A stretch of 64,000 nucleotides of DNA, taken from contig OY969814.1 of the NCBI GenBank assembly GCA_963703345.1, forward strand, positions 1,600,001-1,664,000, in the 5' to 3' direction. The notes beneath the pieces are model-generated. The model made no database searches. It was given only the letters and a program-made list of their open reading frames with translations, and was not told the origin of the DNA. Positions 11,971-58,046 of the stretch are shown here, in pieces. A program made the position numbers and the translations under genes. Source of the DNA: an uncultured Chloroflexia bacterium (GTDB lineage: Bacteria > Chloroflexota > Dehalococcoidia > DSTF01 > JALHUB01). Within the stretch, counting starts at the first letter, position 1, and each line of letters starts with the position of its first letter.

Positions 11971-12069
11971 GGCACCGACAAAGGCAAACTCCTCGAAAGA
12001 GGGGGACGCAAAGCCGCAGACCTAAAGCTTGCTGTCGCAGAAGCTATGGCCGCTGGGCTTCCGAAAGCC
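11971..12069 (+). promoter_or_regulatory. c-di-GMP-I (GEMM) riboswitch aptamer
   Basis: GGCAAA-CTCCTC-GAAA-GAGGGG-GACGCAAAGCC...CCTAA...TATGG...GGGCTTCCGAA: GNRA tetraloop, its receptor and the conserved junctions. Confidence 0.92.
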
Positions 12070-12132
12070 TTGCCGAAACGGCGTCGGAGAGGACGCCTTC
12101 GGCGCGCATCAATTCCCCCTTCCCAGGTCCTT

Positions 12133-12170
12133 GCCGTCGTCGGTGACGCTGCCGACGACGGCGCTTTTTG
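12133..12170 (+). terminator. intrinsic terminator, likely the riboswitch expression platform
   Basis: GCCGTCGTCGG/CCGACGACGGC stem followed by GCTTTTTG, between the aptamer and the sigma ATG. Confidence 0.8.
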
Positions 12171-12207
12171 TGCCTCCGGCAGCCTCGATTGAGAAACGGA
12201 GCGCGAG

Positions 12208-12933
12208 ATGAGAGAAGACCGGAATCAGATGATCGTCAACCACCTGCCCTTGGTGGCTTTCGTGGTGAACCGCATGCCCAGCGAGGGTACGGGCGCTGTC
12301 GGCATCGACCGCGAAGACGCCATGAGCTACGGCGTCGAGGGGCTCATCCACGCCGTCGACGCCTATGACCCCGAGCGCGGGACCACCTTCGCCAGCTTTG
12401 CCATCCAGCGGATCCGCGGCTCGGTGCTGGACGCTGTTCGCAAGCAGGATCCGCTGCCGCGCTCACTGCGCAGGAACGCCAAGGAGATCGAGCATGCGTC
12501 GCAGGAGTTGGCGGTACAGTTGGGCCGCTGGCCGACCCGGAAGGAGATCGCATTCAAGCTGGGAATCCCCCTATCGCGGCTCCAGTACCTTCTCAGCCGA
12601 GCAAGCTCGCGGCTTGTCTCTCTCGAGTACTCGCTGGAAGACCGTCCGAACTACGGTGCCGGCCATGCGCTGGACCCGGTGGATGAGGACATCCTATCCG
12701 ACCCGGCGCGCGCGGCTGAGCAAAAAGCGGCGCTCTCGCAGCTTTCGCAGGCCGTGAACTCTCTTTGTCGAAGGGACAGGGACATCCTTCGCCTGCGTTA
12801 CGAGGAGTGCCGGCCATTCCACGAGATCGGCGAGATGCTGGAGCTGTCGGAATCGAGGGTCTGTCAGCTTCACAAGCGGATCATCACCCTTCTGCGTCGG
12901 GAGATGCGTCCCCAACTGGAAGAGGCGGCTTGA
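12208..12933 (+). CDS. FliA/WhiG (sigma-28) family RNA polymerase sigma factor
   Basis: GLIHAVDAYDPERGTTFASFAIQRIRGSVLDAVRKQDPLPRS; region 4 EIGEMLELSESRVCQLH. Confidence 0.9.
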   Translation: MREDRNQMIVNHLPLVAFVVNRMPSEGTGAVGIDREDAMSYGVEGLIHAVDAYDPERGTTFASFAIQRIRGSVLDAVRKQDPLPRSLRRNAKEIEHASQELAVQLGRWPTRKEIAFKLGIPLSRLQYLLSRASSRLVSLEYSLEDRPNYGAGHALDPVDEDILSDPARAAEQKAALSQLSQAVNSLCRRDRDILRLRYEECRPFHEIGEMLELSESRVCQLHKRIITLLRREMRPQLEEAA

Positions 12934-12983
12934 CCTTGAGACGCGCAAGGCTTTGGTCTAGACATTTCGCTCTCGATGCAGAC

Positions 12984-13011
12984 TCATCACTGCGGTCTAA
13001 ACTGCCGATAA
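12984..13011 (+). promoter_or_regulatory. putative sigma-28 promoter for the HD-GYP gene
   Basis: Perfect -10 GCCGATAA at 13004-13011; weak -35 (TCAT, 16 nt upstream). Confidence 0.55.
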
Positions 13012-13174
13012 TACTGCGAAGAAGGATGCTCAACCTCCATCCTGCCTTCGAATCGCTTTCTTCCGGACGGTTGTGTCCTGAGGGGAACGAATGTCCGGTT
13101 ACGGGAATCTGTCTGTTCTGCACGAGATGTAGTGCGCGGGCTGCCCCAAGCGCCCGCGAAGTGAGTCTTATGTC

Positions 13175-14659
13175 ATGCAGAATGGTGTAGAGCCAGAAGA
13201 CGAATCGAACGGCAGCAAGACGGAACGCCCGCCGCTAGTGTTGGTCCATTCCACGGCCGGTCCCGCCGCGCATGCTGACGCTGATCGCCCCCATGTTCCG
13301 GCGCCCACTTCCCTGCCGGTACAGGCGCGCATCTTCTCAATCGTCGTCTTCCTCTCGGGCCTGGCGCTCATAGGCTACTACGCGCCGCAAGTGTCTCATT
13401 CCGGCCTCGTAGGGCTCATCCTACTGGGGCTTATGGCCGCCGCTTCGGAACGGTTGAGCATCATCGTTTACGGCGAGAGCTGGGTCTCAATAAGCTTCGT
13501 CTGTCTCTTCGCCATTGCAGCACTTTACGGCCCCCCAGGCATCGTCGTGGCGACACCCCTCGCGATTCTGAGCCTGCACTTTCCGCGGCGGATGCTTCCA
13601 GATCGGCTGATGTTCAACTCGGGCAACTCGCTCCTCGCCGATGTTGCATCAGCACTGATCCTCACGTCTTTCCTGGCGGGCGGCTCGCAAATCACGCTGT
13701 CCGCAAGAGTGTTTGGCGTTGCCGTAGCTGCCGCGGCCGCGAACTATGGCGTGAGGTCTGTCCTGATATCGACTGTGGGCGGCTTGGCGTCGGGTCAACG
13801 CCCGTGGACGTTCTGGCGGCAGAACTTCCAGTGGCTGCTCCCCCACTACATCCTCTTCGGTTTCCTTGGTTTGGCGCTGGCGGTAGCTTATCAGCAGATC
13901 GGCGTCACCGGCCTGCTCGCCTTTGCCGCTCCGCCGCTGATGATGCGTCTTGCCATGAAGCAATACGTCGACAAGACTACTCGCAGCGTCGCGATGCTGA
14001 GGCGCAAGAACGACCAGCTCTTGAAGGCAAATCGCGAAATCCTGGCGATGAGCGCGCGCCTCAAAGAGACATATGACGCCACCCTGGAGGCGCTAGCGGC
14101 GGCGCTGGACGCCAGGGACAGCGAGACCGGCGGGCACTCCAGCCGCGTCACGGTCTACACAATGGATATGGCGCGGGAACTGGGAATAGAAGAACGGAGC
14201 GACGTGTGGCTGGATATCGAGCGCGCCTCGCTGCTTCACGACGTAGGCAAGATCGGCGTTTCCGACGCTATCCTGAACAAGCCTGGCCCGTTGACCTCTG
14301 AGGAGTGGCAACAGATGAGAAAGCATCCGGCCATAGGCTACGATATGCTGAAGGACGTAAAGTTCCTTTCAACTGCGGCGGAGATCGTCTACGCGCACCA
14401 CGAAAGATTCGACGGCAAAGGCTATCCGGTCGGCCTCCAGGGCGAAGACGTACCCCTAGGCGCGCGCATATTCGCCGTCGCTGACGCTTTCGACGCGATG
14501 ACCTCGAACAGGCCCTATCGCCGCGCCCTTTCGGTGGACAAGGCGCGGGAGGAGATCCTGGGCAATTCGGGCAGTCAGTTTGATCCCAGAGTGGTTCAGG
14601 CTTTCCTGCAGTGCCTTCAGGGCTGGGCGGATGACTTGAGGGAAAGGCAGGCCGCCTAG
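13175..14659 (+). CDS. membrane-anchored HD-GYP c-di-GMP phosphodiesterase
   Basis: Multi-TM N-terminus; GHSSRV, LLHDVGK, HHERFDGKGYP, DAMTSNRPYR all intact; start codon uncertain. Confidence 0.9.
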   Translation: MQNGVEPEDESNGSKTERPPLVLVHSTAGPAAHADADRPHVPAPTSLPVQARIFSIVVFLSGLALIGYYAPQVSHSGLVGLILLGLMAAASERLSIIVYGESWVSISFVCLFAIAALYGPPGIVVATPLAILSLHFPRRMLPDRLMFNSGNSLLADVASALILTSFLAGGSQITLSARVFGVAVAAAAANYGVRSVLISTVGGLASGQRPWTFWRQNFQWLLPHYILFGFLGLALAVAYQQIGVTGLLAFAAPPLMMRLAMKQYVDKTTRSVAMLRRKNDQLLKANREILAMSARLKETYDATLEALAAALDARDSETGGHSSRVTVYTMDMARELGIEERSDVWLDIERASLLHDVGKIGVSDAILNKPGPLTSEEWQQMRKHPAIGYDMLKDVKFLSTAAEIVYAHHERFDGKGYPVGLQGEDVPLGARIFAVADAFDAMTSNRPYRRALSVDKAREEILGNSGSQFDPRVVQAFLQCLQGWADDLRERQAA

Positions 14660-51579: not shown

Positions 51580-51608
51580 GACGGGCCCGAGCCGAAGGAG
51601 GTCGGTTG

Positions 51609-52226
51609 ATGGAGCCGCTCAAGTGTGTTGAGTGTGGCGCATTGTTCGAATTGTCGGAGGATAGACGGCGGAGGTATCCAAAGTGGAAACCGAAGGTATG
51701 CCTAGCCTGCTACACGCGCGCCAGGCAGCGCCCTGAACTCAACCTTTCGACCGACGAGGTACTTCAGAGGTTCACCAAGGGCCCGAACACAGGTCTCTTC
51801 ACAGATGGCAGTTGTGAGCACAATCCGAATGGACCAGGTGGATGGGGAGCGGTGAGAGTCCGGAACGGCGTCGTTATGGTTCAGAAGTGCGGGCATTCGC
51901 CCGAGACCACGAGCAATCGCATGGAACTCACGGCACTCATTGAAGCGTACAAGATGCTGGCACCCGATGAGGAAGCAGTAGTCTACACAGACAACAGGTA
52001 CGGTCAAAACATCGCCTCGGCGTGGGCACGGACGTGGAAGAGAAACGGATGGACCCGAGGAAAGAAGCACGAGCCGGTAGAGAACCTAGACCTAGTGCAG
52101 GAATTGTACGCATTGGTTGAGGCTCACCCGCTGGTTCGCGTGGAATGGCAAAGGGGACACGACGGCTGTCGGTGGAATGAGTACGCTGACTCCCTATCGA
52201 CAGCGTACACCCGCGATAGTGTCTAG
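51609..52226 (+). CDS. rnhA: ribonuclease HI with N-terminal zinc ribbon
   Basis: CVEC..CLAC; TDGSC, NRMEL, YTD, RGH, NEYAD; lower GC. Confidence 0.85.
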   Translation: MEPLKCVECGALFELSEDRRRRYPKWKPKVCLACYTRARQRPELNLSTDEVLQRFTKGPNTGLFTDGSCEHNPNGPGGWGAVRVRNGVVMVQKCGHSPETTSNRMELTALIEAYKMLAPDEEAVVYTDNRYGQNIASAWARTWKRNGWTRGKKHEPVENLDLVQELYALVEAHPLVRVEWQRGHDGCRWNEYADSLSTAYTRDSV

Positions 52227-53005
52227 GACTCCCCAGCCAGCGTGACGTCGCCGGCGGAGATGACGGCGATGCTGCCGTCGGGGCGACGCAGCAGGAGGTT
52301 GCCCTCGGCGTCAACGTCCTCCGCGACGCCTTCCTCCAGGCGGTCGCCGAACTGCGCGCGCACCTGCTTACCGAGCGTCTCTAACCGCGTTCGCCAGGCC
52401 TCGTAGACATCGCCGTCGAGGCGAGAGGCGGCGAGGAGCTTCTCGAATCGGTTGAGAACGGTGGCAAGCAGCTTCTCCCGCGCGACTTTTCGTCCGGACT
52501 CGTGCTCCAGGCTGACGGCGATGTCGCGAATCCCTTCGTGCTGCGAGGGGTCGAGATCGACGTTAACGCCGATGCCGACGAGCGCGTACTCGACGTCACC
52601 GCCGCGGAGACGCGAGTCGATCAGGATACCGCCCACCTTGCGCCCTTCAATCAATATGTCGTTCGGCCATTTGATGCTGCTCCTCACGCCGGCGACGGCG
52701 TCGACCGCTTCGCAGACCGCGAGCGGCGCCACCATGACGAGTTGACGGACGGCGTCGGGCTCCGGGCGAAGGACGATGGTGACGTAGAGGCCACCGGGCG
52801 GCGAGACCCAGGCGCGGCCGCGGCGCCCGCGACCGGCGGTCTGCTCATCGGCGAGGACGATGAAGCCGTGGGGAGCGCCAGATTCCGCCTCTTCTCGCGC
52901 CACGTCCATCGTCGAAGAGACGGCGCTTTGATGCAGGGCCAACCGACCAAGTGAGTCGGTTTCAAGCAGCGACTGGAGCGCGCTTAGACAAAAGTCGCCA
53001 TTCAT
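52223..53005 (-). CDS. birA: biotin-protein ligase (no HTH)
   Basis: QTAGRGRRGRAW, KWPND, KVGGIL, GIGVN. Confidence 0.93.
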   Translation of the reverse strand: MNGDFCLSALQSLLETDSLGRLALHQSAVSSTMDVAREEAESGAPHGFIVLADEQTAGRGRRGRAWVSPPGGLYVTIVLRPEPDAVRQLVMVAPLAVCEAVDAVAGVRSSIKWPNDILIEGRKVGGILIDSRLRGGDVEYALVGIGVNVDLDPSQHEGIRDIAVSLEHESGRKVAREKLLATVLNRFEKLLAASRLDGDVYEAWRTRLETLGKQVRAQFGDRLEEGVAEDVDAEGNLLLRRPDGSIAVISAGDVTLAGES

Positions 53006-54540
53006 TTCGGCACCGGGTACAGCTCTTGGAGGAGCTCGCGGGCGACGCTTCGGTCGTCCCAGGGGACATGCATGTCGCCGATGACCATCGATTGCTCGGT
53101 GCCCTTGCCAGCGAGGAGCACGACGTCGCCGGGGCGCGCGAGCTCGAAGGCGCGGCGGATGGCGGCGCGGCGGTTCGGAACGCGCAGGAAGTCGTCGCTT
53201 TCCCGACGGCCGGCGGCGATGAGGGCGCGGGCGATCTCGGCGATGATGGCGTCGGGGTCCTCGGAGCGCGGGTCTTCGTTCGTGAGGATGACGAAATCGG
53301 CGAGCTCGGCGGCGGCGCGGCCCATCCCTTGGCGGCGATTGTGGTCGCGCTCACCGGCGCAACCGAAGACGGCGATGAGGCGGCCTTTCGTCGTCGAACG
53401 GAGGACCTGGAGGACGCGACGCAGGGCCTCCGGCGTGGAAGCGATATCGACGACGACGGGGAACGGCTGGCCGCAGTCGACCGTCTCCATGCGGCCGGGC
53501 ACACCCTTGAAGGCGGCAAGCGCGGCGCATGTTGTCTCCGGCGCTACCCCAAGCGAGAGGGCGACGGCGACGGCGGCAAGGGCATCGTACAGGTTGTGCC
53601 GTCCGGGAAGCGGCAGGCGGACGGGCAGGCGGCCAAACGCCCCGACGAGGTCGAAGACGGAGGCGAGCGGCTCCAGTCGAAGCGATTCGGCGCGGATGTC
53701 GGCCGGCGCGTCGATGGCGTAGGTGACGGCGTTGGCGCGCGTACGGGAGCGCAGAACGTCGGAGGCGGGATCGTCGGCGTTGAGGACGGCCGTCTTGGGC
53801 ACGCCCTTGTCGACGCTCTCGTCCAGCATCCCAAACAGGCGGCCCTTCGCGGCGAGGTAGGCGGACGAGTCGCCATGGAAGTCGAGGTGGTCGCTGCTGA
53901 GGGTCGTGAAGACCGCAACGTCGAACTCGCACTCGTCGACGCGGTTGAGCGCGAGGCCGTGCGAGGAAGCCTCGATGACGGCGTAGCGGCGGCCCCCCGC
54001 GACCATACGGGCGAGCATCTCCTGCACTTCGGGCGCCTGGAGCGTCGTCATGTGGGTGGCGTTGAGCTCCGGGCTGGTCGCTGTCTGGAAGGCAACGCTG
54101 CTGAGGTAGCCGGCAGGCAGGCAGGCCGCCTCCAGGAGCGCGGCGATGAGATGGACGGTGGTTGTCTTGCCGTCGGTGCCGGTGACGCCGATTGTGACGA
54201 GCCTTCGGGCCGGGAATCCCCAGAAGGCGGCGGCAATTCGCGCCAGCGAGCGGCGGCTGTCGGGGACGACGACGAAGGCCGCGCTACCACCGTTTGCCAG
54301 CGCCTGCCACTTCGCCTGCCGGTCGGCCTGGACGACGATTGCGGCGGCGCCCTTTTCAAGCGCCATGGCGACGAAGTCGTGGCCGTCGCGGCTTTGCGGC
54401 GGCAGGGCGCCGGGCACGGCGACGAAGACCGAGCCCGAGGTGACGAGTCGGGAGTCGTAGCAAACGGCCGGGACGGACGCAGGCGGTTGCCCGTCGAAGC
54501 GGGCGTAGGGCAGGAGCAAAGGCCAGTCGATGCGGGTCAT
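53002..54540 (-). CDS. murE: Mur ligase, MurE type
   Basis: DSR, GVTGTDGKTT, EASSH, DHLDFH, PGRME, NEDPR, AGKG. Confidence 0.85.
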   Translation of the reverse strand: MTRIDWPLLLPYARFDGQPPASVPAVCYDSRLVTSGSVFVAVPGALPPQSRDGHDFVAMALEKGAAAIVVQADRQAKWQALANGGSAAFVVVPDSRRSLARIAAAFWGFPARRLVTIGVTGTDGKTTTVHLIAALLEAACLPAGYLSSVAFQTATSPELNATHMTTLQAPEVQEMLARMVAGGRRYAVIEASSHGLALNRVDECEFDVAVFTTLSSDHLDFHGDSSAYLAAKGRLFGMLDESVDKGVPKTAVLNADDPASDVLRSRTRANAVTYAIDAPADIRAESLRLEPLASVFDLVGAFGRLPVRLPLPGRHNLYDALAAVAVALSLGVAPETTCAALAAFKGVPGRMETVDCGQPFPVVVDIASTPEALRRVLQVLRSTTKGRLIAVFGCAGERDHNRRQGMGRAAAELADFVILTNEDPRSEDPDAIIAEIARALIAAGRRESDDFLRVPNRRAAIRRAFELARPGDVVLLAGKGTEQSMVIGDMHVPWDDRSVARELLQELYPVPK

Positions 54541-54637
54541 ATCACCTCGCGAGTCGATTTCCGTCATTATAGCGCCGGAGCCGAGCGTCGGCGAGAAAAG
54601 GGAGGCCCGTCCGCCTGAGGCGGACGGGCCACGCAAG

Positions 54638-55044
54638 CGCCAGCGGACCTGTAAGCCGAGTTCTGTCTTTCCGCCCAAGGCGGACAGGCCGCCTTCGACG
54701 AAACGGTGACCATCTATCTGGGATGACGGTTGCCCGCCACCTCTAGCGACCAACCCGAGGACGGGCCGGGCGAGCCCATAGTCCTCCTATTCGGTCTTGC
54801 TCCGGGTGGGGCTTGCCCGGCCAGCCGGTCGCCCGACTGCCGGTGAGCTCTTACCTCGCCATTTCACCCTTATCCACCTGAGGCAGACAGGCCGCCTGCG
54901 GCGGACGGTATGTTTCTGTGGCGCTTTCCGTAGGGTCGCCCCTCCTGGGTGTTACCCAGCACCCTCGCCCGGTGGAGCTCGGACTTTCCTCCCTCATGCG
55001 TCTGCATCGCAGACGCGCGAGAGCGGTCACCCGGTCTGCTGGCG
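54638..55044 (-). ncRNA. rnpB: RNase P RNA (type A)
   Basis: GAGGAAAGTCCG near the 5' end, ACAGAACTCGGCTTACAGG at the 3' end, complementary P1 termini, TATACT -10 upstream. Confidence 0.95.
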
Positions 55045-55108
55045 AGTCAAGTATAGCAGGAACGGGAGGACTTTAGAAGGCCGCCGTACTTCTGCCGGCG
55101 CGCCGAGG

Positions 55109-55338
55109 GCGTGTCTGAGGCGTCACTATAGGCAGCCCGGAGCGCGTTAGCACAAGCGCCTCGAGCGCGTGTCTGAGGCGTCACTATAGGCAGCCCGGAG
55201 CGCGTTAGCACAAGCGCCTCGAGCGCGTGTCTGAGGCGTCACTATAGGCAGCCCGGAGCGCGTTAGCACAAGCGCCTCGAGCGCGTGTCTGAGGCGTCAC
55301 TATAGGCAGCCCGGAGCGCGTTAGCACAAGCGCCTCGA
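55109..55338. repeat. perfect tandem repeat, 58 bp x ~4
   Basis: Unit GCGTGTCTGAGGCGTCACTATAGGCAGCCCGGAGCGCGTTAGCACAAGCGCCTCGAGC starting at 55109, 55167, 55225, 55283; no spacers. Confidence 0.95.
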
Positions 55339-55377: not shown

Positions 55378-55797
55378 TTATGTCGAGCTGTCGAGGGCCT
55401 GGTTGGCGAGGTTGTCGGCGAGGCGATTGCCGGTGCGCGGGACGTTTCGAAAGGTGGCGGACTGGAAACGGCTGCGCAGGTCAAGGAGGCGCTTGTAGAG
55501 AGGGATCAGTCGCGGGTTTCGAACGCGGTAACGGCCGGTGAGCTGCCGGACGACGAGCTCGGAGTCCATGCGCAGCTCGACATGAGCGGCACCGAGGCCC
55601 AATGCGGCTTCCAGAGCGCTGATGGCGGCACGGTACTCCGCCTCGTTGTTGGTGCCGACGCCGGTTCGTCGCGACTGCCGGTGGACTTCGCGGCCGGCGG
55701 GATCGAAGATGACGACGCCGACAGCCGAAGGACCCGGGTTGCCCCGCGAGGCGCCGTCGGCATAGGCGACGTAGACCGACCGCTGCGCCTCGCTCAC
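55378..55797 (-). CDS. ribonuclease HI family protein (short type)
   Basis: ADGASRGNPG, TNNEAEY, DSELVVRQ, N..AD.LAN. Confidence 0.92.
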   Translation of the reverse strand: MSEAQRSVYVAYADGASRGNPGPSAVGVVIFDPAGREVHRQSRRTGVGTNNEAEYRAAISALEAALGLGAAHVELRMDSELVVRQLTGRYRVRNPRLIPLYKRLLDLRSRFQSATFRNVPRTGNRLADNLANQALDSST

Positions 55798-57206
55798 GGC
55801 CGCAGCGACACCTCGATGCCATCGTCGACGACGATAATACGGTTGACGACGTCACGCAGGAGAGAGCGCCGCGAGGGGAAATCGAGCGAGTCCCAGCGGT
55901 CGCAGAGACGAAGCAACGCCTGCTCCTGCGCCCGCCGTCGCGCGGCCACCGACGCCTGTTCCTCGACGCGCCGCTCCGCCGCGACTAATCGCCCCTCCAT
56001 CTCAAGCCGCTCGGTGGCAAGCGCCATGCCGAGTGATTGCAGCTTCTCGCGGCTAAGGCGGCCGCGGGCGGCGGCGTCCATGTGCCGCTCCAGTCGCTTG
56101 TCCAGTTGGGCCAGGCGGCGTCGCATCTCTTCTCGCTCTTCCTTCGATTCGGCGAAGACGGCGTCCTGATCACCGGCCTGGCGGAAGGCGCTTCCGCCAT
56201 CTAGGTCGAGTGCGGAAAGCTGCCCGCGCACCTCGCTTTCGAGGTCGTCGGCGCGACGGGTGTGATAATCGCAGAGGCTCTGGTTTGTGCGCGACTGGCA
56301 CTGATAATAGCGATAGGAGGCTTCGGCGACGGAACCGTCCCGCTGCCGCTTCCAACTCTGTCGGCGGCTTACGCCAATCATTTTGTTGTTGCAGTAGCCG
56401 CAGTAGACGAGTCCGGAGAGCAGGAAGGGCGCGGCCTGCGGCGCGGAGTAGCTGCTGCGGCGCGCCATCAGGCAGTCCTGCACGCGGCGGAAGTCCTCAT
56501 TTGAGATGAGAGCGGGATGGCTGCCCGGCACGCGGACGCCGAAGCGGCTGTAGGTGCCAAGGTAGGTGCGGTTGCGAAGGATGTCGCGGATGCTCACCAT
56601 GCTCCAGTTGCCGCCGCGTCGGGTCTTGACGCCCTCCTGGTTCAGGCAGCGGGCGATGCGTCGGATGCCGAGCCCCTCCTGCAAGTAGAGTCGAAAGATG
56701 TAGCGGACGACGACGGCTTCCTCCGGGACCAGGTCCAGGCGGCGGCGATTGCCGACCCGATAGCCGAAAGGCGGCCGGCCGAGCACTTCGCCTCTGACGG
56801 CTTTGCGTCGCATGGCGGAGCGTACTTTGTCGCCGACGCGGCCCTGGTTGCTCTTGGTCCAGGCTTCGAGGAGGCGACCGGTTGCGTCGTCGTCGTTCAT
56901 GACGAGCACCTGGGCGCCGAGGCCCTGCAGCTCGAACCAGCTCCGGGCGGCCTCCTTGACGTCGCGGCCGAGGCAATCGATTGACGGCGTGACGACCATC
57001 AGGAAGCCTTTCTCCGGCCGCTTGAGGAACTCGACGAGTTGCTGGTAGCCGGGACGCCTTTCGGCATCGACTGCGGCACCGTCGACGAAGGAGGCGACCG
57101 CCTCGTAGCCGCGATCACGGCAGAACTCAAGGAAGGCCGTGCTCTGCGCCGCGAGCGGTTCGCCGCGATCCCCCGCGGGCTCTTTGAAGTAGCCTACCGC
57201 CTTCAT
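55794..57206 (-). CDS. large serine recombinase-family protein with degenerate catalytic domain
   Basis: Recombinase domain (PPFGY, ILRNRTYLG, HPALIS) and Zn ribbon (CGYC..YQC..C); YFKEP in place of YxRxS. Confidence 0.85.
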   Translation of the reverse strand: MKAVGYFKEPAGDRGEPLAAQSTAFLEFCRDRGYEAVASFVDGAAVDAERRPGYQQLVEFLKRPEKGFLMVVTPSIDCLGRDVKEAARSWFELQGLGAQVLVMNDDDATGRLLEAWTKSNQGRVGDKVRSAMRRKAVRGEVLGRPPFGYRVGNRRRLDLVPEEAVVVRYIFRLYLQEGLGIRRIARCLNQEGVKTRRGGNWSMVSIRDILRNRTYLGTYSRFGVRVPGSHPALISNEDFRRVQDCLMARRSSYSAPQAAPFLLSGLVYCGYCNNKMIGVSRRQSWKRQRDGSVAEASYRYYQCQSRTNQSLCDYHTRRADDLESEVRGQLSALDLDGGSAFRQAGDQDAVFAESKEEREEMRRRLAQLDKRLERHMDAAARGRLSREKLQSLGMALATERLEMEGRLVAAERRVEEQASVAARRRAQEQALLRLCDRWDSLDFPSRRSLLRDVVNRIIVVDDGIEVSLRP

Positions 57207-57210
57207 CCGA

Positions 57211-57915
57211 TCAACTCACGTAGAGTATCCGCTCGCAACTGCTGCATTGGACGATGACGTCGGAGCCGCCGCGGGCCTTCTGCAGTAGCGACATGGGCAG
57301 GGAGATGCGGCAGCCGCCGCAGGTGCCCCGCTCGACCTTGGCGACGGCGCGCCCCTGGTGCTTGGAGCGAAGGACGTCGTACTGGGAGAGCCCCGCGCCA
57401 TCTATGGCTGCCCGCTGCTGTGCCCGCTTCCCTTCCAGTTCCTCGATCTCGGCCGTCAGGTCAGCTTGCCGTTGGCGAAGGTCTCGCTGCTCTTGCTCCC
57501 AGGCGCCTAGAAGCGAGGCATGCTCGCGACGGGCGGCGGCAAGCGCTCTTTCCGCCTCTTCGAGCTGCGACATCACTTCGAGCGCCTTGTCCTCGAGGAC
57601 GCGTTTGCGCGCCTGGATGGACTGGATGTCCTCCTGCAGGCTCGCGAGCTCCTTGGGGTTGTGGAGGGTGCCGGCGTAGAGCTTCTTCTCCAGGGGCCGG
57701 ATCTTGTTCGTCAGGTCGTCGACCTCCCATTCGGCGCTGCGGAGGTGCTTCTGAATCTCCTGTGCTTCGCCTTCCCACCCGCCGATTGCGGCGGCCGCCT
57801 CCGCGACCTCTTCGGAGTCGCCGAGCCGCCCTTCGATCTCCTCCAGAGCAGCGCGCTGGCTGTCGATCTCCAGGTCCGTCTCCTGAAGCTCGTAGAGGTC
57901 GGATATTCTTGTCAT
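57211..57915 (-). CDS. coiled-coil protein with C4 zinc ribbon (zf-RING_7 type)
   Basis: LQETDLEID coiled coil; CGGC...CSSCERIL. Confidence 0.9.
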   Translation of the reverse strand: MTRISDLYELQETDLEIDSQRAALEEIEGRLGDSEEVAEAAAAIGGWEGEAQEIQKHLRSAEWEVDDLTNKIRPLEKKLYAGTLHNPKELASLQEDIQSIQARKRVLEDKALEVMSQLEEAERALAAARREHASLLGAWEQEQRDLRQRQADLTAEIEELEGKRAQQRAAIDGAGLSQYDVLRSKHQGRAVAKVERGTCGGCRISLPMSLLQKARGGSDVIVQCSSCERILYVS

Positions 57916-58046
57916 GCGGTCAATTGCAGGCGTGGGTTGCTACTCGTGTCAGGACGAAGGGTGGGAGGCCCATCGCTGGGCCGCAAGCAGGATTATACGG
58001 CGAGCGGCGAAAGACCCGCAAGACGAGACGGAGCGATCCGTCTGGT

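Follow-up and report, generated by a model that had tools for sequence, protein, structure and literature searches.

A catalytically dead large serine recombinase homolog as a predicted DNA-binding factor in the Zn-ribbon/RNase H/rnpB operon of Dehalococcoidia

What keeps a recombinase in a core bacterial operon once its catalytic residues are gone? The question is raised by a 64,000-nucleotide stretch of an uncultured Chloroflexia bacterium assigned to the Dehalococcoidia (assembly GCA_963703345.1, contig OY969814.1, positions 1,600,001 to 1,664,000; the whole stretch is called the window here, and positions count from its first letter). On its minus strand, between a Zn-ribbon gene and an RNase HI gene that is followed by the RNase P RNA gene rnpB, lies a gene (55794-57206) for a 470-amino-acid homolog of large serine recombinases (LSRs). 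A previous reading made from the sequence only had described this protein as a dead, domesticated integrase co-opted to bind or synapse DNA. Using Pfam matches, structure models and the occurrence of the gene as a single copy in the class, we describe it as a catalytically dead LSR homolog, dLSR. We are very confident that dLSR is dead and domesticated, and we consider it likely that it binds DNA, as predicted from its domains and from the selection that acts on them.

In dLSR, the position of the catalytic YxRxS motif is taken by Y6-F-K-E-P10 (codons 6-10; 57177-57191, minus strand), with Pro10 at the nucleophile position, and sequence and ortholog tally place D77-C-L-G-R81 at the position of DRLxR (codons 77-81; 56964-56978, minus strand). 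The earliest serine is residue 22, and no SG follows D42. The nearest intact relatives read AVGYFRVS and DRFGRD where dLSR reads AVGYFKEP and DCLGRD, and these matches fix the register, so that dLSR has no shifted nucleophile, the case that would have spoken for a working enzyme. In DNA run X1, possibly the source sample, one contig spans 57019-57252 with 0 differences. We find the same loss among 127 distinct ortholog loci, a set weighted towards close relatives because the best matches come first: R8 is kept in 87, S10 in 24, R8 and S10 together in 19, D77 in 16, R78 in 7 and R81 in 16, and all five catalytic residues occur together in none. One caveat concerns the 19 orthologs that read YFRES, none of which has a complete DRxxR. 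Between residues 6 and 14 serine is most frequent at S10, in 24 loci, and any other loop position holds it in at most 17. In a wider profile search against 1.84 billion representatives, 88 of the best 150 score at least 265 bits with an aligned N-terminus; none of these has both catalytic motifs, while RxS only is found in 9 and DRxxR only in 1. Nine proteins among the best 150 are intact, every one below 265 bits.

The change extends beyond the active site. According to part of a structural study, helix E contributes to the rotation interface of LSRs (PMC3783163). The span from beta5 to helix E is 43-48 amino acids in 12 dead family members and 50-51 in 7 active LSRs; helix E of dLSR itself falls 5-7 residues short of that in the active enzymes. 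Of two AlphaFold models of dLSR (predicted local distance difference test, pLDDT, 78.8 and 88.6), the better one breaks helix E at residues 121-123, a predicted shape, since this block has a pLDDT of 67. The shortening and the modelled break of helix E make it likely that the rotation interface is lost too.

The LSR architecture of catalytic domain, recombinase domain, zinc ribbon and coiled coil is otherwise complete in dLSR, and the DNA-binding parts are intact, as had been claimed. Pfam gives matches to Recombinase (6e-21) and Zn_ribbon_recom (1e-12) and a weak one to Resolvase (2e-10). The models match serine integrases over the whole length (Foldseek E 9e-19; Z 19.4 over 387 residues at a root mean square deviation of 15.6), and ESM Atlas returns recombinase clusters only. 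The XisF and CcrA-C equivalogs of NCBIfam score 54-75 bits, far under their cut-offs of 375-900. Conservation and the ratio of nonsynonymous to synonymous substitution rates (dN/dS) mark the C-terminal half of helix E and the recombinase domain (residues 124-250; 56457-56837, minus strand) as the most conserved part, which is predicted to bind DNA. The zinc-ribbon domain, delimited by Pfam, conservation and the model (residues 259-330; 56217-56432, minus strand), has four cysteines and a long hairpin with R281, Q283, W285 and Y298, and the coiled coil, judged by its span in orthologs and by dN/dS, covers residues 345-430 (55917-56174, minus strand). The zinc ligands are kept in all or nearly all of the 127 loci (C269 in 127, C272 in 124, C303 in 124 and C312 in 121). 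Two orthologs from family f22 (L061 and L062) have lost zinc-ligand cysteines and retain the hairpin and YRYY motifs.

Is this a host gene or the residue of a mobile element? Using a broad profile over 201 Dehalococcoidia genomes and a match threshold of at least 366 bits, we find exactly one dLSR in 108 genomes and no internal stop in any of the 108; since genome G109 has a further, very diverged copy beside rnpB, 108 is a floor. All 41 close relatives carry the gene, as does the cultured Tepidiforma flava, and none of 221 other Chloroflexota genomes does (best score 225 bits). The family forms one clade both against 10 active LSRs (100% support; quick IQ-TREE) and against the nearest intact representatives (99%; FastTree). 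Most host families group together in the dLSR trees, family f1 only in part, and the deep order is uncertain because of long branches. The composition of dLSR is that of its host (GC content 0.663, and 0.815 at third codon positions; the 1331 called genes longer than 600 nucleotides have medians of 0.658 and 0.847). Around dLSR no mobile element is found in the 127 loci, and the neighbours are core genes. A scan of the 54 other called open reading frames of the window with NCBIfam (1e-15) names no phage gene and no gene of an integrative and conjugative element, in agreement with the sequence-only reading; the one mobile-element match is an IS1595 transposase about 14 kb away, and the other named frames are housekeeping, signalling and metabolic genes.

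The sites where dLSR is missing are clean. In 20 non-carriers, with no dLSR remnant, the Zn-ribbon gene runs straight into RNase H (10), rnpB (5) or other neighbours (5), and three more non-carriers have no remnant near rnpB. Part of an earlier study describes the clustering of Zn-ribbon, RNase H and RNase P RNA genes in other phyla (PMC3372290), as the sequence-only reading had it. Given that the cluster occurs in other phyla and that the empty sites are clean, we infer that dLSR was inserted into an older cluster and cleanly lost several times afterwards. The locus often lies far from dnaA, and so does the empty locus in some non-carriers, which makes this position uninformative.

Selection on the gene is purifying. 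Pooled over nine same-genus loci, dN/dS is 0.125 for dLSR, below that of the Zn-ribbon gene (0.20), and it is 0.07-0.22 in four other groups; together with the lack of internal stops this contradicts decay. Ortholog survey, trees, dN/dS and empty sites thus agree on a domesticated host gene. The survey that had been proposed as a check bears out the family-wide loss of the serine and arginine catalytic set, the purifying selection and the synteny with the Zn-ribbon gene, and falls short for RNase HI, which directly follows dLSR in 65 of 122 loci only.

Selection is strongest in the parts that would contact DNA. By part, dN/dS is 0.038 for the end of helix E, 0.053 for the recombinase domain, 0.10 for the zinc ribbon and 0.11 for the coiled coil, and looser for the former catalytic domain (0.175) and the linker (0.34). 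Mean column conservation is 0.81, 0.80 and 0.73 for the end of helix E, the recombinase domain and the zinc ribbon, and 0.54, 0.47 and 0.36 for the former catalytic domain, the coiled coil and the linker. In the LI integrase, part of a structural study names Met136, Tyr207, Asn208, Asp287, Thr288, Tyr295 and Tyr297 as base readers (PMC3783163). Their equivalents in dLSR are V128 (by structural alignment offset), M203 and V204 (by helix register), and S284, W285, A296 and Y298 (by alignment), and five are held in nearly all of the 127 loci (V128 in 114, M203 in 114, V204 in 118, W285 in 123 and Y298 in 125). The recognition helix WSMVxIRD is near-fixed in the family, and the M203/V204 pair differs among 7 aligned active LSRs. 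Between its cysteine anchors the hairpin has 29-32 amino acids in dLSR against 20-22 in the 7 active LSRs, with a conserved tryptophan. A recognition surface fixed among proteins that are 35-50% identical overall would be best explained by a conserved DNA target. The claim of a DNA-binding factor is therefore well supported by selection; its companion, a synapsing factor, is weakened by the shortened helix E and by a coiled coil that is 15-30 amino acids shorter in 6 of 127 loci.

Based on these data, we tentatively predict, at slightly less than an even chance, that dLSR is a site-specific DNA binder that regulates transcription by occupying a fixed site. The ancestral integrase of a mobile element would have been captured once and lost several times, and its shortened, broken helix E would have removed the swivel interface required for strand exchange. 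The recognition helix and the hairpin with R281, Q283, W285 and Y298 may recognise a conserved site, each subunit covering about 25 bp as in complexes of integrases with att (attachment) sites, while the leftover N-terminal domain and the coiled coil may hold a dimer on the site in the manner of an inactive integrase dimer. Once bound, dLSR could repress or activate transcription or form a roadblock, with MrpR of phage SPbeta as the model. Parts of two studies provide precedents: integrases bind their sites as inactive dimers whose coiled coils can make intra- or inter-dimer contacts (PMC11722253), and an LSR with a serine-to-alanine change still binds attP (PMC9638900). In its broader form, on which we are evenly divided, the proposal makes dLSR an ancient factor of the Dehalococcoidia, either a regulator or a chromosome organiser, whose integrase-derived reading heads and coiled coil would clamp or bridge a conserved site of 25-50 bp. 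It would then be the first core DNA-binding factor known in bacteria to have arisen from an entire serine integrase that lost its activity.

Several observations weigh against this proposal. A bacterial regulator often has an operator at its own promoter. At the dLSR operon and at rnpB, among the ortholog spacers listed, we find promoter boxes only: the operon is preceded by a sigma70-type promoter-like site read from the sequence (TTGCGG-N18-TATAAT; 57992-58021, minus strand), whose -10 box recurs in most of these spacers, and upstream sequences give rnpB a -10 box of its own. No stretch of synonymous constraint is found in 108 dLSR coding sequences. Footprinting with 200 orthologous upstream pairs and intergenic BLAST against 2.0 of the 2.4 Mb (83%) of G164, a Tepidiformaceae-type genome of family f17, uncovers no orphan site of att size, and no carrier-specific feature is seen at mraZ promoters (24 genomes) or ssrA flanks (30). 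The placing of M203 and V204 follows an inferred helix register and not the gap placement of the alignment, S284 (28 of 54) and A296 (30 of 54) vary, and family f27 has an altered recognition helix. About half of the Dehalococcoidia, including genera within carrier families, do without dLSR, and in genome G016 (7% contamination) two overlapping pieces make up a second copy.

Among the conserved footprinting matches, one is a c-di-AMP riboswitch, and the others look to us like T-boxes, riboswitches, CIRCE, structural RNAs and a nadA palindrome. The last, 27 bp long, is common to this genome (G000:C1:33788-33808) and G164 (L360:11825), lies upstream of a nadA-type operon and is, we presume, an NrtR-type operator. 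No shared repeated dyad survives multiple testing, and CIRCE-type dyads rank among the top. We also observe that DnaA of family f17 (for example, G052, G082, G150 and G164) matches at E 1e-62 to 1e-74 in 10 of 11 genomes and in G164 not at all at 1e-60, against 1e-95 or better in most of the class, so that DnaA of f17 is diverged or truncated.

Two candidate targets were considered. The sequence-only reading had pointed to the 58-bp repeats that lie next to the operon (4.1 copies; 55104-55338, plus strand). Repeat analysis shows that they belong to a genus-level dispersed family with 11 loci in this genome (after dropping three weak matches with E above 0.1), and we reject them as the dLSR target: the exact 14-mer core occurs in 6 of 41 relatives, though all 41 carry dLSR, neither of two order-level complete genomes has a true family member, and the core is found in 0 places in the 2.0 Mb of G164. 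The repeats switch strand between 1.561 and 1.655 Mb, near the minimum of cumulative GC skew and the antipode of dnaA; this polarity fits 10 of 11 loci, and 8 of 11 lie within 1.42-1.85 Mb.

The second candidate is a conserved element, roughly 45 bp long, that abuts the dnaA -35 box on its upstream side and reads GAAAG, an A/T tract and TCATAA-N4-CTTGA (G000:C1:409500-409590, and L184-L213, L216, L217, L225, L227, L229, L231, L233, L241, L242 and L272); it looks like a binding site for a regulator of dnaA. This genome has it once, 28 of 30 loci of the order share it, and it occurs in families f13, f24, f34, f43, f50 and f52. As a general target of dLSR we reject it as well, since it tracks a subclade and occurs in just 9 of 30 distant carriers, against 1 of 30 non-carriers; the difference gives a Fisher p of 0.012, but kin are not independent. 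A profile search finds no dLSR ortholog in the single non-carrier with the element. The element could be one dLSR target in one subclade. In this contig dnaA (408 kb) itself lies near the GC-skew maximum and not the minimum, and no DnaA-box cluster was found there, so that the skew is inverted, the origin displaced or the contig rearranged. A palindrome at 497 kb, also near the skew maximum, is one we take to be parS-like.

What else could a dead integrase do? A role in chromosome architecture or the cell cycle, in which dLSR bridges fixed sites by coiled-coil handshakes or marks a region and exerts no control over transcription, is in our view somewhat unlikely. It would fit the coiled coil, which spans 94 amino acids in 105 of 127 loci under a dN/dS of 0.11 and which in integrases mediates synapsis between dimers, as parts of one study describe (PMC11722253); a site in coding DNA, or several degenerate sites, would also evade intergenic footprinting. 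However, the coiled coil is the least conserved domain (0.47), and in 6 of 127 loci it falls below 80 amino acids, 15-30 short of the usual span, although a contig end cuts one of the six. In addition, helix E is shortened, a small test of 5 genomes shows no complementary pattern for XerD, SMC and ParB, and no shared repeated dyad passes correction for multiple testing. We think it unlikely that dLSR instead binds nucleic-acid structures such as R-loops, forks and transcription bubbles, or serves as an RNA polymerase factor together with the Zn-ribbon protein and RNase HI. The first gene of the operon (57211-57915, minus strand) encodes a CT398/CdsZ/HP0958-like coiled-coil C4 zinc-ribbon protein (Pfam CT398_CC and Zn_ribbon_9) and ends 4 nucleotides before dLSR, while the start codon of the RNase HI gene (RVT_3 type by Pfam; 55378-55797, minus strand) overlaps the dLSR stop in GTGA, giving three coupled minus-strand genes; GC content, gap and overlap are all as the sequence-only reading had given them. 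In favour of this reading, dLSR is translationally coupled to both neighbours, part of one report predicts that the Zn-ribbon family binds the RNA polymerase beta-prime subunit (10.64898/2026.07.15.738315), the hairpin is long and bears its conserved tryptophan, and structure-specific binding would account for the absent sequence target. A script places the Zn-ribbon gene next to dLSR in 115 of 122 loci, a count that inspection raises to 117, and rnpB (54636-55042, minus strand; Rfam RF00010, 284.6 bits) lies within 1.4 kb in 58 of 109. But family f9 has dLSR in 12 of 12 genomes and a Zn-ribbon homolog in none of them, family f34 keeps dLSR with no genome among the 165 that match the Zn-ribbon profile, and many non-carriers retain the Zn-ribbon gene. 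With a single-protein query, operon-type RNase HI is detected in 8 of 15 non-carriers and in 9 of 26 carriers, leaving 17 carriers with no match. Neither protein is therefore an obligate partner of dLSR, and the suggestion that dLSR works with RNase H is not supported. The hairpin of LI integrase is fairly long too, and the Zn-ribbon/RNase H/rnpB cluster is older than the insertion and persists without dLSR (PMC3372290, in part).

Protection of att sites from mobile elements, or the poisoning of incoming integrases in mixed complexes, would suit a protein of integrase descent that has kept its DNA-reading parts, and it was among the roles first put forward; we now regard it as very unlikely. 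Defence genes are usually patchy and mobile, unlike dLSR, which is fixed in place. Other LSRs, counted by hand with at most 8 candidates scored per genome, occur at similar frequency in carriers (31 of 108, one split gene left out) and non-carriers (31 of 92, without G109; p 0.54), which argues against general blocking of integration. An LSR stands beside ssrA in 3 of 15 non-carriers and 1 of 15 carriers, a difference that is not significant (Fisher p 0.6), and the carrier, G093, has its LSR at that very place. Finally, dLSR could still be an enzyme that uses another nucleophile, shifted or of a different kind, or that acts in trans together with an active integrase; or it could be a slowly decaying relic. 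Consistent with this, 87 of 127 loci keep R8 and 19 read YFRES, conservation extends to Y6, Q21 and an acidic residue at position 42, and the protein still has the former catalytic fold (Z 13.9 against the catalytic domain of TP901-1). Yet no locus has the full catalytic set, no position from 6 to 14 holds a serine in more than 24 of 127 loci, and the length of the loop is highly variable; a relic is opposed by dN/dS of 0.07-0.22 across five separate groups and by 108 matches free of internal stops. We consider both versions extremely improbable.

How does a regulator or organiser of this origin compare with known systems? With the LSRs and serine integrases (SPbeta SprA, 9y66 and 9dxd; PhiC31; Bxb1; Listeria A118/LI, 4kis; TP901-1) dLSR shares the whole architecture, that is a resolvase-type N-terminal domain, a recombinase domain and a C4 zinc ribbon with an inserted coiled coil. 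It differs from them in lacking the catalytic serine and arginine set, a surrounding element, att sites and a recombination directionality factor, in its helix E, 5-7 amino acids shorter and broken in the model, and in its vertical single-copy inheritance and near-fixed recognition surface. The top-scoring intact relatives (235-261 bits) are compact LSRs of 459-491 amino acids (P0359, P0362, P0366, P0367, P0373 and P0375-P0377); these resemble dLSR in length class and in their AVGYxRxS and DRFGRD context, but keep both catalytic motifs, lack the GVxRxxxW hairpin pattern and fall outside the dead clade (99%, FastTree). Two parallels in fate are viral. MrpR (YopR) of the Bacillus phage SPbeta, as part of its description shows, is a recombinase fold that lost its activity and became a sequence-specific repressor, but its fold is that of a tyrosine recombinase, it is phage-encoded and its operator is known (PMC10516654), whereas dLSR has a serine fold and is a host core gene. 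Poxvirus F16 (OPG61) is likewise an inactivated serine recombinase, with DRLxR replaced, that is nevertheless retained; the passages at hand liken it to the catalytic domain only (10.1101/2022.11.22.517515), while dLSR is chromosomal and has all LSR DNA-binding domains. XerC/D, Hin-type invertases and excisable switches were recruited by their hosts as dLSR was, but still cut DNA, and the serine recombinase passages of a review of recruited mobile-element genes describe active enzymes only (PMC8987985). XisF and CcrABC are host-recruited active recombinases too, and dLSR lacks their DNA-cutting residues. In the mostly open-access literature searched, supplements aside, we found no description of the dLSR family, and our searches returned no case of a dead large serine integrase that became a host gene in bacteria.

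A few further observations concern this genome. Two other LSRs with serine motifs are encoded at G000:C1:1941520-1942499 (L022) and 642221 (L023), and one of the two adjoins tRNA-Arg(CCG). The last 25 bases of tRNA-Val occur in twelve copies including the gene itself (G000:C1:1252833-1259609, 1919387-1921886, 1026456, 1981943 and 2126189); five more stand in tandem at a spacing of about 1-2.5 kb next to tRNA-Val(TAC), an arrangement that looks like stacked integration events. In the window, a MurE-like ligase gene (53002-54540, minus strand) comes after rnpB, as it does in several carrier and non-carrier loci. A second RNase H, of the E. coli type (51606-52226, plus strand; Pfam RNase_H 3e-29), lies 3 kb from the RNase HI of the operon and has an N-terminal extension with two CxxC pairs. 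At 11973-14656, a c-di-GMP-I riboswitch precedes genes for a c-di-GMP phosphodiesterase and a sigma factor of the FliA/WhiG type, and a GGDEF gene lies close by.

Recruited recombinases usually remain enzymes, as do Xer, Hin and the excisable switches, and the dead, repurposed ones that parts of the literature describe are MrpR and F16. dLSR is a natural experiment that separates DNA reading by an integrase from catalysis, and it is testable, given that the cultured Tepidiforma flava carries it. It also calls for caution in integrase mining and island prediction, where dLSR would count as a marker of a mobile element. If dLSR is a regulator or chromosome factor, a new family of DNA-binding factors would be going by the name "recombinase family protein" in roughly half the genomes of a class that is prominent in soils, sediments and the sea, and it would found a new class of host regulators.

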